NCBI RefSeq assembly: GCF_988243305.1
Contig: NZ_OZ547136.1
Strand: one strand, 5' to 3'
DNA length: 64,000 bases
Positions 353-42,595 of the stretch are shown here, one piece after another. The stretch's first letter is position 1; each line of letters begins with the position of its first letter. A model generated the notes under the pieces. That model ran no database searches, was not told where the DNA came from, and was given only the letters and a program-made list of their open reading frames with translations. Position numbers and translations under genes: made by a program.

Positions 353-540
353 TGACCATCAGCGATATCATTGAAATTATTGTCGTTTGCGCACTGATAT
401 TTTTCCCGCTGGGCTATCTGGCGCGGCACTCTTTGCGACGCATTCGCGACACCTTACGTTTGTTCTTTGCTAAACCTCGTTATGTTAAACCGGCCGGGAC
501 GTTACGCCGCACGGAAAAAGCCAGGGCAACCAAAAAATGA
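349..540 (+). CDS. bcsF: Cellulose biosynthesis small membrane protein BcsF (63 aa)
   Basis: 63-aa [27 protein letters not shown]... with one hydrophobic helix; 4-bp overlaps with both neighbours. Confidence 0.85.
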
Positions 541-2216
541 CTCAATTTACGCAAAATACCGCCATGCCTTCTTCCCTCTGGCAATACTGGCGCGGCCTTT
601 CCGGCTGGAACTTCTATTTTCTGGTTAAGTTCGGCCTGTTGTGGGCGGGATATCTTAACTTCCATCCGCTCCTCAATCTGGTGTTTGCCGCGTTTCTGCT
701 GATGCCCATTCCGCGCTACAGCCTGCATCGCTTACGCCACTGGATTGCCCTGCCGATCGGCTTTGCTTTGTTCTGGCATGACACCTGGTTACCTGGCCCG
801 GAAAGCATAATGAGCCAGGGTTCGCAGGTGGCGGGGTTCAGTACCGATTATTTAATCGACCTTGTCACACGCTTTATTAACTGGCAGATGATTGGGGCCA
901 TTTTTGTTTTATTAGTGGCCTGGTTATTCCTGTCACAATGGATTCGCATTACCGTTTTTGTGGTTGCCATTCTGCTATGGCTGAACGTACTTACCCTGGC
1001 GGGACCAAGTTTCTCCTTGTGGCCAGCCGGTCAACCGACGACCACTGTAACAACGACGGGTGGTAACGCAGCGGCAACCGTTGCGGCGACGGGTGGCGCA
1101 CCGGTAGTGGGTGATATGCCCGCACAAACTGCACCGCCAACAACGGCGAACCTTAACGCCTGGCTGAATAATTTCTATAACGCGGAGGCGAAACGTAAAT
1201 CGACCTTCCCGTCTTCGCTGCCCGCTGATGCTCAGCCATTTGAACTACTGGTGATTAATATCTGTTCGCTTTCCTGGTCGGATATAGAAGCCGCCGGGTT
1301 GATGTCGCATCCGCTGTGGTCGCATTTCGATATTGAGTTCAAGAACTTTAACTCCGCCACCTCCTACAGTGGCCCGGCGGCGATCCGTTTACTGCGCGCC
1401 AGCTGCGGGCAGACTTCGCACACTAATCTGTATCAACCGGCAAATAATGACTGCTATCTGTTTGATAACCTGTCGAAACTGGGCTTTACCCAGCACCTGA
1501 TGATGGGACATAACGGCCAGTTCGGCGGTTTTTTGAAAGAAGTTCGCGAAAATGGCGGCATGCAGACCGAATTGATGGATCAAACAAATTTGCCGGTTAT
1601 TTTGCTGGGCTTTGATGGTTCGCCGGTTTATGACGATACCGCCGTGCTTAACCGCTGGCTGGACGTTACCGAAAAAGATAAAAACAGCCGTAGTGCCACG
1701 TTCTACAACACGCTTCCACTGCATGACGGCAACCATTATCCGGGCGTCAGCAAAACAGCGGATTACAAAGCGCGGGCGCAGAAATTCTTTGATGAACTGG
1801 ACGCCTTCTTTACTGAACTGGAGAAATCGGGTCGTAAAGTGATGGTGGTCGTGGTGCCGGAACACGGTGGCGCGCTGAAGGGCGACAGAATGCAGGTATC
1901 TGGCCTACGTGATATCCCTAGCCCGTCTATCACAGACGTCCCCGTTGGGGTGAAATTCTTCGGCATGAAGGCACCACATCAGGGGGCACCGATTGTCATC
2001 GACCAACCGAGCAGCTTCCTGGCTATCTCCGATCTGGTGGTTCGCGTTCTTGATGGCAAGATTTTCTCCGAAGACAATGTTGACTGGAAAAAACTCACCA
2101 GTGGGTTGCCACAAACAGCACCGGTCTCAGAGAACTCAAATGCAGTAGTTATTCAATACCAGGATAAACCGTACGTTCGCCTGAACGGCGGCGACTGGGT
2201 GCCTTACCCGCAATAA
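537..2216 (+). CDS. bcsG: Cellulose phosphoethanolamine transferase BcsG (559 aa)
   Basis: 559-aa ORF with N-terminal membrane helices, T/A/G/P-rich linker and C-terminal alkaline-phosphatase-like domain; length matches BcsG. Confidence 0.92.
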
Positions 2217-2302
2217 GAACGAAAAAGGCCGCAGAGTTTCACCCCTGCGGCCTGGTCCGGGCGCAAATTGCCATTACGGCAGCCTGACGCCCGCATGACA
2301 CG

Positions 2303-2410
2303 TTACTTCCGCTTATTCAGCGAGTTCACGATCAGACTGGCAAGAATGCCAGCAATGACCGGAGCCGCTAAATCATGCCAGAAGGCCATGCCCAGTTCTG
2401 CGAGCGTCAT
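2303..2410 (-). CDS. Ldr-family type I toxin, 35 aa (copy 1, Trp->Ser variant near C-terminus)
   Basis: MTLAELGMAFWHDLAAPVIAGILASLIVNSLNKRK; ATG at 2408-2410 on minus strand; matches LdrD-type peptide as remembered. Confidence 0.8.
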   Translation of the reverse strand: MTLAELGMAFWHDLAAPVIAGILASLIVNSLNKRK

Positions 2411-2457
2411 ATAGCCGCCTCTGTTGTAATGACAACGTTTCGCGGCTATTCTTGAGT

Positions 2458-2524
2458 TGTTTGGGTTCAAGATTAGCCCCCGTGATGTTGTCAGGTGCAT
2501 ACCTGCAATATGCGGGGGTTTTCT
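2458..2524 (+). ncRNA. Rdl-type antisense sRNA (copy 1), ends in GC hairpin plus U-run
   Basis: cccccg...cggggg stem followed by ttttctctc; lies antisense to the ldr 5' leader; exact 5' end not determinable from sequence. Confidence 0.45.
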
Positions 2525-2785
2525 CTCTCCAGCAACCAATGCCACTAGGGATTAAGCCCCCGCAACATTGCGCCTCACCGGAACCCTTCCGGCTTGCCGC
2601 TGATTCTACGGCCATTTTTGTTCGTCGAAATCCATCACTTCTTCACTCTGTGCTGCGCATTCCGCAGAATATTATCCGCTTGCAACCGTTGCATTTTTCT
2701 TACGAAAAAGGCCGCAGAGTTTTATCCCTGCGGCCTGATCCGGGCGCAAATTGCCATTACGGCAGCCTGACGCCCGTCTGACACG

Positions 2786-2893
2786 TTACTTCCGCTTGTT
2801 CAGCCAGTTCACGATCAGACTGGCAAGAATGCCAGCAATGACCGGAGCCGCTAAATCATGCCAGAAGGCCATGCCCAGCTCTGCGAGCGTCAT
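2786..2893 (-). CDS. Ldr-family type I toxin, 35 aa (copy 2)
   Basis: MTLAELGMAFWHDLAAPVIAGILASLIVNWLNKRK; ATG at 2891-2893 on minus strand. Confidence 0.85.
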   Translation of the reverse strand: MTLAELGMAFWHDLAAPVIAGILASLIVNWLNKRK

Positions 2894-2940
2894 ATAGCCG
2901 CCTGAGTTGTAATGACAACGTTTCGCGGCTATTCTTGTAT

Positions 2941-3007
2941 TGTTTGGATGCAAGAATGGCCCCCGTGGTGTTGTCAGGTGCATACCTGCAACGTGCGGGG
3001 GTTTTCT
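2941..3007 (+). ncRNA. Rdl-type antisense sRNA (copy 2)
   Basis: Same hairpin plus U-run terminator as copy 1, offset by one repeat period. Confidence 0.45.
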
Positions 3008-3268
3008 CTCTCCAGCAACCAATGCCACCAGGGATAAAGCCCCCGCAACATTGCGCCTCACCGGAACCTTTCCGGCTTGCCGCTGATTCTACGACTGTTT
3101 TTCTGCTCCGGAATCCGTCACTTCTTCACTCTGTGCTGTGCATTCCGCAGAATATTATCCGCTTGCAACCGTTGCATTTTTCTTACGAAAAAGGCCGCAG
3201 AGTTTTATCCCTGCGGCCTGATCCGGACGCAACTTGCCATTACGGCAGCCTGACGCCCGTCTGACACG

Positions 3269-3376
3269 TTACTTCCGCTTATTCAGCCAATTCACGATCA
3301 TGCTGGCAAGAATGCCAGCAATGACCGGAGCCGCTAAATCATGCCAGAAGGCCATGCCCAGTTCTGCGAGCGTCAT
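3269..3376 (-). CDS. ldrD: Ldr-family type I toxin, 35 aa (copy 3, closest to the K-12 LdrD sequence as I recall it)
   Basis: MTLAELGMAFWHDLAAPVIAGILASMIVNWLNKRK; ATG at 3374-3376 on minus strand. Confidence 0.85.
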   Translation of the reverse strand: MTLAELGMAFWHDLAAPVIAGILASMIVNWLNKRK

Positions 3377-3425
3377 ATAGCCGCCTGTGTTGTAATGACA
3401 ACGTTTCGCGGCTATTCTTGAGTGG

Positions 3426-3492
3426 TCTAGGTTCAAGATTAGCCCCCGTGATGTTGTCAGGTGCATACCTGCAACGTGCGGGGGTTTTCTCT
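3426..3492 (+). ncRNA. Rdl-type antisense sRNA (copy 3)
   Basis: Hairpin cccccgtgatg...cgtgcggggg followed by ttttctctctcc. Confidence 0.45.
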
Positions 3493-3851
3493 CTCCAGCA
3501 ACCAATGCCACCAGGGATTAAGCCCCCGCAACATTGCGCCTCACCGGAACCTTTCCGGCTTGCCGCTGATTTTACGATTGCTTTTTACCGTCAGCACCCG
3601 GCAATCTTCCTCATTGCGCGATGCCTTCCAGCTTAATTTCTTTATTTGCAATAGTTGCAGTTCATATCCGAGCTGACTCCAGACTGGTAGTGAAATGCGC
3701 AATTTTGTAGAATTGCGCCTCCTCGCGACCTCCCCAGTGAATCTGTTGCCTCATTTTTTACATACTGCGTATTCGACTTCTCCACCTGTTGCGCAAGAGA
3801 AACTGGGTTTATTCATTTTTGCGAGGCCGACTTCTTTCTGGACAGGACTTT

Positions 3852-11060: not shown

Positions 11061-11596
11061 CAACGGTGAGAATCCACAAACAAAGATTAAAAAAACTTCA
11101 AACAGCTATTTGCAGCAGAGAAATTTGTGCTACTCCAACATGACCAGAACAATCAGCTTAATATTTAGCAACAATTGGTGATTAAGTTTTATGCATTTTG
11201 TGAAAAAAATCTGAGGAAAAGGTGGATATCTGAGCGATTAATACCATGAACGCTAAAACGCACAGCGGAAAATGCCAGCGCCAGTCATAAGTAACGCAAA
11301 AAAAGATTTAAGCAAATATAAAAAAAGACAATGGTTTCTGTCACAAATCCGTTAATGGATAGTGAGATATGGGGCGCAAATTTGGCAGGGAAATGTGTGG
11401 TGTGTTGCCGTTTAGATCGGATAAGACGGATACGCTGTATCCCACAATGAGTGCGGTGCCGAATTTGGTCGGTGCCAGAGGATTACTCGCCACTTCGTGG
11501 CTCGCCCTGCGGGCCGTTGCTGGCGCAACGTTCTCTCGCTTCGCTCGAGTCGAACCTCCCTGCCCCCGGAGGTTCTCATCCTCATAGGCTACAAAT

Positions 11597-11624
11597 GCAA
11601 AAAAGCCTGCTCGTTGAGCAGGCT
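11597..11624 (-). terminator. Rho-independent terminator downstream of proK
   Basis: Hairpin agcctgctcgttgagcaggct flanked by A-run on plus strand (U-run on minus). Confidence 0.75.
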
Positions 11625-11633
11625 TTTCGAATT

Positions 11634-11710
<77 letters not shown>

Positions 11711-22899: not shown

Positions 22900-22907
22900 G
22901 CACATCA

Positions 22908-23066
22908 ACGGTTTGACGTACAGACCATTAAAGCAGTGTAGTAAGGCAAGTCCCTTCAAGAGTTATCGTTGATACCCCTCGTAGTGCACATTCCTTTAAC
23001 GCTTCAAAATCTGTAAAGCACGCCATATCGCCGAAAGGCACACTTAATTATTAAAGGTAATACACT
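22908..23066 (+). promoter_or_regulatory. cspA 159-nt 5' UTR (cold-box / RNA thermosensor leader)
   Basis: Leader beginning ACGGTTTGACGTACAGACC... runs to the ATG at 23067; established cspA biology. Confidence 0.8.
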
Positions 23067-23279
23067 ATGTCCGGTAAAATGACTGGTATCGTAAAATGGT
23101 TCAACGCTGACAAAGGCTTCGGCTTCATCACTCCTGACGATGGCTCTAAAGACGTGTTCGTACACTTCTCTGCTATCCAGAACGATGGTTACAAATCTCT
23201 GGACGAAGGTCAGAAAGTGTCCTTCACCATCGAAAGCGGCGCTAAAGGCCCGGCAGCTGGTAACGTAACCAGCCTGTAA
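23067..23279 (+). CDS. cspA: Major cold-shock protein CspA (70 aa)
   Basis: [70 protein letters not shown]. Confidence 0.98.
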
Positions 23280-23306
23280 TCTCTGCTTAAAAGCACAGAA
23301 TCTAAG

Positions 23307-23337
23307 ATCCCTGCCATTTGGCGGGGATTTTTTTATT
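23307..23337 (+). terminator. cspA rho-independent terminator
   Basis: Hairpin tccctgcc-attt-ggcgggga followed by tttttttatttg. Confidence 0.8.
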
Positions 23338-23466: not shown

Positions 23467-23619
23467 TTACTCTTTCAAATTGCAGGCTAAAAATGCCGCC
23501 AGCTCATAACTCCCCTGTTTAATATGCAATTCACACAGTGAATCTCTTATCATCCAGGTGAAAAATAAAAGCGTGCAACAAATCACTATTAAAGAAAGTA
23601 ATCTATATTTCTGCGGCAT
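23467..23619 (-). CDS. hokA: Hok-family type I toxin HokA (50 aa)
   Basis: MPQKYRLLSLIVICCTLLFFTWMIRDSLCELHIKQGSYELAAFLACNLKE; an in-frame 20-codon upstream extension exists in the ORF track. Confidence 0.85.
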   Translation of the reverse strand: MPQKYRLLSLIVICCTLLFFTWMIRDSLCELHIKQGSYELAAFLACNLKE

Positions 23620-23896
23620 TCCCAGCCTCCTGTGTTGATTTCCAACGAGTAAGAGGCTAACCTTATGGTGTTCAGGCATAGGGTAGCCTCACTTTGATTT
23701 ATAGTCAGGTGGGGCTTTTCTCTGTCTGCCTTTCGGTGAATACCTGAGACAAACAGTCTCAAGCACCCGCAGCTATTCTAGCTTAATAAGTTCGTTTCTT
23801 CTCCTTGATATAATCCTAAAAAAATCTCATAAAATTAATATATGAGACAATCTTTATTCAGCAGAAGATTATTAAAGGTTGCTCTATTATTTAGCG

Positions 23897-42496: not shown

Positions 42497-42595
42497 GCCT
42501 GATGCGCTACGCTTATCAGGCCTACATGATTTCTGCAATATATTGAATTTGGTAGAATTTGTAGGCCGGATAAGGCGTTTTAGCCGCATCCGGCA
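42497..42595. repeat. BIME: two REP palindromes in inverted orientation
   Basis: gcctgatgcgctacgcttatcaggcctac (42497-42525) and gtaggccggataaggcgttttagccgcatccggca (42561-42595). Confidence 0.8.

Follow-up and report, generated by a model that had tools for sequence, protein, structure and literature searches.

A probable two-part interdomain tether in Escherichia coli BcsG: a low-complexity segment of nearly fixed length with a rare in-frame deletion allele

We found that the Thr/Ala/Gly/Pro-rich segment of bcsG in a window of 64,000 nucleotides (the whole stretch of DNA analyzed, from contig NZ_OZ547136.1 of NCBI RefSeq assembly GCF_988243305.1) very probably encodes the interdomain tether of BcsG, in which about 30 disordered residues are followed by an ordered GD(M/I)PAQTAPPT stretch and of which both the length and the sequence are under selection. 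The BcsG linker is already known and is textbook-level for the bacterial cellulose field; the details that are new are its two-part anatomy, a length of 43 residues that is fixed in five genera, purifying selection and a recurrent natural deletion of 11 residues. The tether is constrained in evolution: E. coli and four neighboring genera share a single linker length, and the linker sequence has diverged no faster than that of the folded domains, which argues for a length or sequence requirement in what has been published as a "flexible linker". The features of bcsG that enter the argument are the following:

537..2216, plus strand: bcsG coding sequence, 559 aa and a stop codon (ORF list, Pfam PF11658, PDB 9b8v_B)
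948..1001, plus strand: last transmembrane helix TM5, aa 138-155, from the end of which the linker starts (AlphaFold2 helix, hydrophobic windows 112-161)
1011..1106, plus strand: disordered tether proper, aa 159-190, Thr/Ala/Gly-rich (pLDDT, ortholog identity)
1023..1151, plus strand: Thr/Ala/Gly/Pro-rich low-complexity segment, aa 163-205 (P163-N205) (translation, composition)
1107..1151, plus strand: conserved GD(M/I)PAQTAPPT segment, aa 191-205, predicted to be ordered (pLDDT, ortholog conservation)
1152..2213, plus strand: periplasmic catalytic domain of the alkaline-phosphatase fold, aa 206-559 (PDB matches, AlphaFold2)

The bcsG product is assigned by sequence matches as the phosphoethanolamine transferase of the cellulose synthase complex. 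The ORF matches the CBP_BcsG family (PF11658) with an E-value of 7e-236 and 784 bits (cut-off 24.8) across profile positions 1-516 of 516; the E. coli BcsG chains of 9b8v (9b8v_B) and 9fmv match over the full length of the protein, and crystal structures of the catalytic domain match at aa 163-559 (6pcz_A) and aa 185-559 (5ojh_A). The key residues C243, Y277, S278, C290, C306, H396, E442, H443 and R458 are in place, and are invariant or nearly so in an alignment of 110 sequences. They comprise the catalytic Ser278, the metal ligands Cys243/Glu442/His443 together with His396, the Cys290-Cys306 disulfide, and Tyr277 and Arg458 (PMC8892547). Directly upstream of bcsG lie the 3′ end of bcsE (38-352) and bcsF (349-540), in the operon order bcsE-bcsF-bcsG. 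ATGA overlaps join the bcsE stop to the bcsF start (349-352) and the bcsF stop to the bcsG start (537-540), which suggests that the three genes might be translationally coupled.

E. coli Z1323HEC0462 (human, South Korea) has exactly the same bcsG nucleotide sequence as the window (100% identity). Compared with K-12 (DH5alpha record), the bcsG of the window shows differences at 20 sites, with a single amino acid change, S511T, that lies outside the linker, and it carries the minority synonymous allele T at 1031. The 90%-identity protein cluster that contains E. coli BcsG has 19377 members, some of which are 523-aa proteins named BcsE; these names are probably a clustering artifact, perhaps bridged by fused or mis-called ORFs, and member counts of this cluster are not readable as BcsG counts.

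The stretch 1020-1151 translates in the bcsG frame exactly as the preliminary description quoted it, and its low complexity is confirmed by composition. T, A, G and P make up 77% of aa 163-205 versus 24% of the remaining BcsG; of all 43-residue stretches of the protein, this one has the lowest entropy (2.77 bits, median 3.76), and its 33 T/A/G/P residues exceed the maximum of 28 that was reached by 43-residue windows in 5000 shuffles of the protein. An AlphaFold2 model built from the 110-sequence alignment (mean pLDDT 87) has helices at 24-36, 44-55, 61-82, 103-132 and 138-155, plus short interface helices, in agreement with the five transmembrane helices of the BcsG membrane domain in the cryo-EM descriptions (PMC11379886, PMC11470070). 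In this model, aa 159-188 of the tether fall below a pLDDT of 50 (10-residue block means of 36, 30 and 41) and are flanked by regions above 84; the block means then climb to 84 (aa 191-200) and 95 (aa 201-210), and the catalytic domain, with H203-218 as its first helix, lies mostly above 90. The proposal that the segment is a flexible linker from the membrane anchor to the catalytic domain is thus supported by both the cryo-EM papers and the low pLDDT of aa 159-188. The extent that had been given to this linker holds in part: aa 159-190 are disordered, but the last ~15 residues (aa 191-205) are conserved and confidently modeled and therefore seem to belong to the catalytic domain and not to the free linker. 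The GD(M/I)PAQTAPPT segment within them is conserved in all orthologs down to 74% identity, even in those with an unrelated N-terminal part of the linker. Published linker lengths are ~30 (PMC8892547), ~45 (PMC11379886) and 48 residues (PMC11470070), and the split into a disordered tether and an ordered stretch reconciles the three.

Among 116 full-length orthologs with at least 74% identity, the linker is exactly 43 aa in 75, and the whole range is 40-46. The 43-residue form is that of Escherichia, Salmonella, Citrobacter, Enterobacter and Kosakonia, and Klebsiella, Kluyvera, Cronobacter and their relatives have linkers of 40-46 residues. In the wider family, sampled by 102 representatives at 33-56% identity, the linkers measure about 0-74 residues with a median of 24, as inferred for these distant members from the spacing of two alignment anchors, R137 and F213; the near-zero values may reflect a different N-terminal domain. 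Family-wide, the linker is free to vary in both length and sequence; from Escherichia through Kosakonia it is nearly fixed (43 residues, 81-84% identity).

For selection, we compared the window with Salmonella, Enterobacter hormaechei, Citrobacter freundii and Kosakonia radicincitans by means of dN and raw proportions, as dS is incalculable for several region pairs in which the synonymous differences are above the Jukes-Cantor limit. Synonymous differences in the linker affect 64-83% of synonymous sites, which amounts to saturation. Amino acid identity in the four genus pairs is 81-84% for the linker, 79-85% for the membrane domain and 80-84% for the catalytic domain, and dN is 0.09-0.12 in the linker versus 0.10-0.14 in the catalytic domain. 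Because amino acid identity is high despite saturated synonymous sites, we conclude that purifying selection acts on the linker peptide in E. coli and close relatives. It maintains the length of the tether and much of its sequence, so that the tether is not a hypervariable site. Over all close orthologs, the disordered part is 61-77% identical versus 79-85% for the folded domains, a conservation beyond the needs of a passive spacer that hints at an unrecognized sequence-specific role.

The catalytic domain and the linker are unresolved in cryo-EM though the full-length protein is present (PMC11379886, PMC11470070). In the literature model, the proposed catalytic cycle requires the head to turn by ~90 degrees and to undergo a translation (PMC11379886, PMC11470070, PMC8892547), and it has been estimated that the extension of the linker could exceed 80 Å, or 10-15 nm (PMC11379886, PMC11470070). 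BcsG is the enzyme that moves phosphoethanolamine from membrane phosphatidylethanolamine onto nascent cellulose. In this model, Ser278 is loaded with phosphoethanolamine at the membrane surface, and the disordered tether (aa 159-190), leading from TM5, would allow the catalytic head to move back and forth from there to the glucan as it leaves BcsA/BcsB, a shuttle step that we infer from the published model. The only recurrent change in the length of the tether is a rare 33-bp deletion of the RecA-independent type between 10-nt direct repeats, and the resulting 32-residue linker still falls inside the range of the wider family. We found no experiments on the BcsG linker itself in the literature searched. 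A rough random-coil estimate gives an end-to-end distance of ~70 Å for 43 residues, and the BcsB crown is ~70 Å high (PMC11379886); we suggest that the fixed length of the tether may reflect a required reach. It is doubtful that the tether is a tuned molecular ruler, whose length of 43 residues and T/V-rich sequence selection has fitted to the BcsB crown height and to a given frequency or position of pEtN, so that the deletion allele would alter the modification. If such a ruler did exist, the 11-residue deletion would change the degree or pattern of pEtN and hence the architecture of the biofilm.

Another reading is a sequence-specific element: the conserved T/V-rich tract would either bind a partner such as the membrane surface, the nascent glucan, BcsB or a neighboring BcsG protomer, or define a precise reach that fits the ~70 Å BcsB crown. 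We regard this as rather unlikely. The linker dN, as low as that of the catalytic domain in all four genus pairs with their saturated synonymous sites, is consistent with such an element, as are the conservation of most positions at 80% or more among 43 distinct 43-residue linker variants and the closeness of the random-coil estimate to the published BcsB height (PMC11379886); however, the N-terminal part of the linker is an unrelated T/A/S-rich sequence in Klebsiella, Kluyvera and Cronobacter (40-46 residues), sequence and length are free family-wide, AlphaFold2 gives the tract no structure, and the allele with the 11-residue deletion retains an intact ORF in a widely sampled clone. An interdomain tether under selection is the reading that we prefer to such an element.

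The preliminary description had also raised the possibility that the repetitive codons of the segment are a site of slippage or of length variation between strains, and a hypermutable site of this kind, acting as a hotspot for length variants that are possibly adaptive, can be weighed against the genomes. The linker has the same length in about 99.8% of ~5350 complete E. coli genomes, a collection that is clinically biased and clonal; the E. coli counts derive from coverage and identity bands and from designed junction queries, with rows inspected among the matches listed. A 401-nt query matched 5349 of 5426 complete genomes, with 59 of 59 sampled full-length rows colinear. With a 175-nt linker query, 5346 genomes were matched, 5345 of them over at least 80% and all at 95% identity or more, and the 39 full-length rows sampled were all colinear and spanned exactly 175 nt. 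Both queries are blind to indels, a 33-bp deletion still leaving at least 80% coverage of the 175 nt. We accordingly used four overlapping 55-nt tiles, in which a 3-nt indel would bring the identity below 95%: no alignment fell below this value in the 5291, 5311, 5344 and 4303 genomes matched, with 3-nt indels possible in the 55, 35, 2 and ~1040 genomes that had no seed match to the respective tile. Sensitive blastn with a 90-nt core matched 5346 genomes, 5340 over at least 80% and six below, the six being the five carriers of the 33-bp deletion and strain PK6. Any change of length here concerns about ten of the 5349 complete genomes (0.2%). A 90-bp deletion between AACAACG repeats was also considered and is excluded indirectly, as coverage of the 175-nt query drops below 80% in PK6 alone.

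At the DNA level, the repetitiveness of the codons proved to be compositional only: GGT, ACG and GCA occur five times each and GCG four times, with at most two in succession, and Tandem Repeats Finder detected no tandem repeats in bcsG at a score of 30 or more. The exact-repeat scan yielded mostly short two-copy matches, of which only a 10-mer with 33-nt spacing and an 8-mer with 183-nt spacing are meaningful:

978..985, plus strand: 8-mer TGGCTGAA, left microhomology of a 183-bp deletion (repeat scan)
1054..1063, plus strand: direct repeat copy 1, CGACGGGTGG, left end of the 33-bp deletion (longest exact repeat in 1001-1170)
1087..1096, plus strand: direct repeat copy 2, CGACGGGTGG, right end of the 33-bp deletion (exact-repeat scan)
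1161..1168, plus strand: 8-mer TGGCTGAA, right microhomology of the 183-bp deletion (repeat scan)

The 10-nt CGACGGGTGG is the exact core of an imperfect 25-nt pair (1039-1063/1072-1096, 72% identical, 33 nt apart), which is the only internal repeat of the segment. From the 10-nt direct repeat at 1054/1087, a 33-bp in-frame deletion is therefore predicted. A junction query for slippage between the CGACGGGTGG copies was contiguous over 90 nt in exactly five genomes (5/5345, 0.09%), the next best rows ending at position 79, and the junction of the reciprocal 33-bp duplication matched no genome. Length conservation in E. coli is thus not strict. The deletion, diagnosed by the junction k-mer AACAACGACGGGTGGCGCACC as opposed to the wild-type k-mers ACGACGGGTGGTAACGCAG and GCGGCGACGGGTGGCGCACC, removes 1054-1086 of the window, i.e., 11 codons in frame, to give a 548-aa BcsG with a 32-residue linker. 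Four of the carriers (FDAARGOS_1267, USA; B1172, Czech Republic, feces; AST216, Japan; AF5, UK, blood culture) share an identical sequence of 5290 nt, with bcsG annotated as intact (WP_001519015.1), so that a deletion allele with an intact ORF is carried by an internationally sampled, human-associated clone. The fifth, PCP06171 from Galapagos seawater, has a bcsG with 34 differences from that of the other four and a premature stop; it is nearest to the K-12 type (15 differences). As the polymorphic sites nearest to the deletion, 1031 and 1118, match the separate background of each carrier, the deletion arose at least twice, unless a recombination tract of less than 87 bp is invoked. The exact 548-aa protein is present in 666 contigs of a large protein collection, in which each of the two common 559-aa alleles has at least 1000; we found no mention of the 33-bp (11-residue) deletion allele in the searchable literature. 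The 32-residue allele probably retains its function, given that most linkers of the family have 15-35 residues and that a widely sampled clone keeps the ORF intact. As a natural linker-shortening mutant that lacks 11 residues and keeps its ORF, it is usable to test whether reach limits the modification of cellulose.

A few other rare deletions touch the segment. PK6 lacks 979-1072 (94 bp), and its bcsG is annotated as frameshifted; an E. coli O157 draft contig (GCA_036256975.1, protein P0007) lacks 978-1160, an in-frame loss of 183 bp between the TGGCTGAA repeats that takes out the end of TM5 and the whole linker; and a metagenome-assembled protein (P0285) lacks residues 116-170 (55 aa). Multi-kb bcs deletions end near 1134 in ETEC1746 and near 1219 in TUM9757. 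These were surveyed around the linker segment, with no enrichment claimed relative to the rest of bcsG, and one deletion in the catalytic domain (P0014) was met by chance. On the whole, we consider a hypermutable slippage site quite unlikely. There is indeed an imperfect direct repeat of 33 nt built around an exact 10-mer, its predicted 33-bp deletion exists with at least two origins, and the three further rare deletions (94 bp, 183 bp, 55 aa) and the ETEC1746 deletion end in or next to the segment; but no tandem array or triplet run of more than two is found, the product occurs in only the five genomes and the duplication in none, the length is identical in five genera despite saturated synonymous divergence, and one deletion is found in the catalytic domain too. 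The earlier suggestion of a length-variable site is hence mostly refuted, the rare deletion allele being the part of it that stands. The segment is not a simple-sequence contingency locus: we looked for both a tandem array and frequent polymorphism and found neither.

In LtaS, a related enzyme of Gram-positive bacteria, the linker is cleaved and a soluble catalytic domain is released. BcsG has an LtaS-like architecture of five transmembrane helices, a linker and an alkaline-phosphatase-fold domain, with Ala-x-Ala motifs in the linker sequence (A178-A179-A180), and by analogy a periplasmic protease or signal peptidase might cut it there. This is very unlikely for BcsG, as the full-length enzyme is present in the cryo-EM sample (PMC11379886) and neither cleavage nor proteolysis of BcsG was found in the BcsG literature searched. 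Finally, a constraint on the nucleotide sequence rather than the peptide, from an antisense gene, small RNA or regulatory site over the linker codons (the ORF list has two 50-aa antisense ORFs, 975-1127 and 991-1143), can be dismissed with near certainty because synonymous sites are saturated between genera, and 1000-1170 has no match to an Rfam family and no promoter-like or terminator-like site. The peptide-level tether is the reading carried forward here.

Independent inactivations of bcsG or bcs are seen in scattered E. coli, namely the premature stop of PCP06171, the 94-bp frameshift of PK6 and the multi-kb deletions of ETEC1746 and TUM9757, which join bcsG remnants to bcsZ-side or bcsA PilZ-domain remnants; the bcsC of ETEC1746 has an internal stop too. 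These recall the bcsG stop codon of the invasive Salmonella Typhimurium D23580 (PMC6611641).

Immediately after bcsG, the window has an Ldr/Rdl type I toxin-antitoxin module in three tandem 483-bp copies (2219-3668), with 35-aa Ldr ORFs on the minus strand (ends 2303, 2786 and 3269), Rfam rdlD matches at 2459-2524, 2942-3007 and 3425-3490, and paired terminator-like hairpins in every copy. Three copies are present in the window, Z1323HEC0462, the DH5alpha record and TUM9757, and one copy in PK6, N24, ETEC1746, the O157 contig, all five strains with the 33-bp deletion and a Salmonella contig. It is this array that truly varies in length in the neighborhood, and not the bcsG linker. Elsewhere in the window, Rfam matches are found to the following:

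11466-11710, minus strand: RtT RNA, next to a tRNA (gathering-score match)
22907-23334, plus strand: cspA thermoregulator (gathering-score match)
23617-23768, minus strand: sok antitoxin RNA (gathering-score match)
42518-42560, minus strand: ES036 sRNA (just above threshold)

Among known systems, the BcsG linker of the E. coli Bcs macrocomplex (PMC11379886, PMC11470070; reviewed in PMC8892547) is the same object as the segment analyzed here, with nothing different in kind. The lipid A phosphoethanolamine transferases EptA and MCR-1, which share only 11-13% identity with BcsG (PMC8892547), likewise combine a membrane domain, a flexible connection and a periplasmic alkaline-phosphatase-fold domain for which large movements have been proposed (PMC11470070). 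In EptA, however, donor and acceptor both stay in the membrane and a short reach is enough, whereas BcsG must reach a polymer that is leaving the BcsB crown. A low-complexity Thr/Pro/Ala/Gly tract between the two domains of a cellulose-acting enzyme is likewise seen in the Pro/Thr-rich linkers of cellulases and other carbohydrate-active enzymes, which are often O-glycosylated and vary widely in length. We know of no glycosylation of the BcsG linker, and unlike the cellulase linkers it hardly changes in length within the clade. Simple-sequence contingency loci likewise undergo repeat-mediated changes of length inside coding sequences, but the BcsG linker differs from them in its lack of a tandem array, in a change that is in frame rather than an on/off frameshift, and in the occurrence of this change in 0.09% of genomes.
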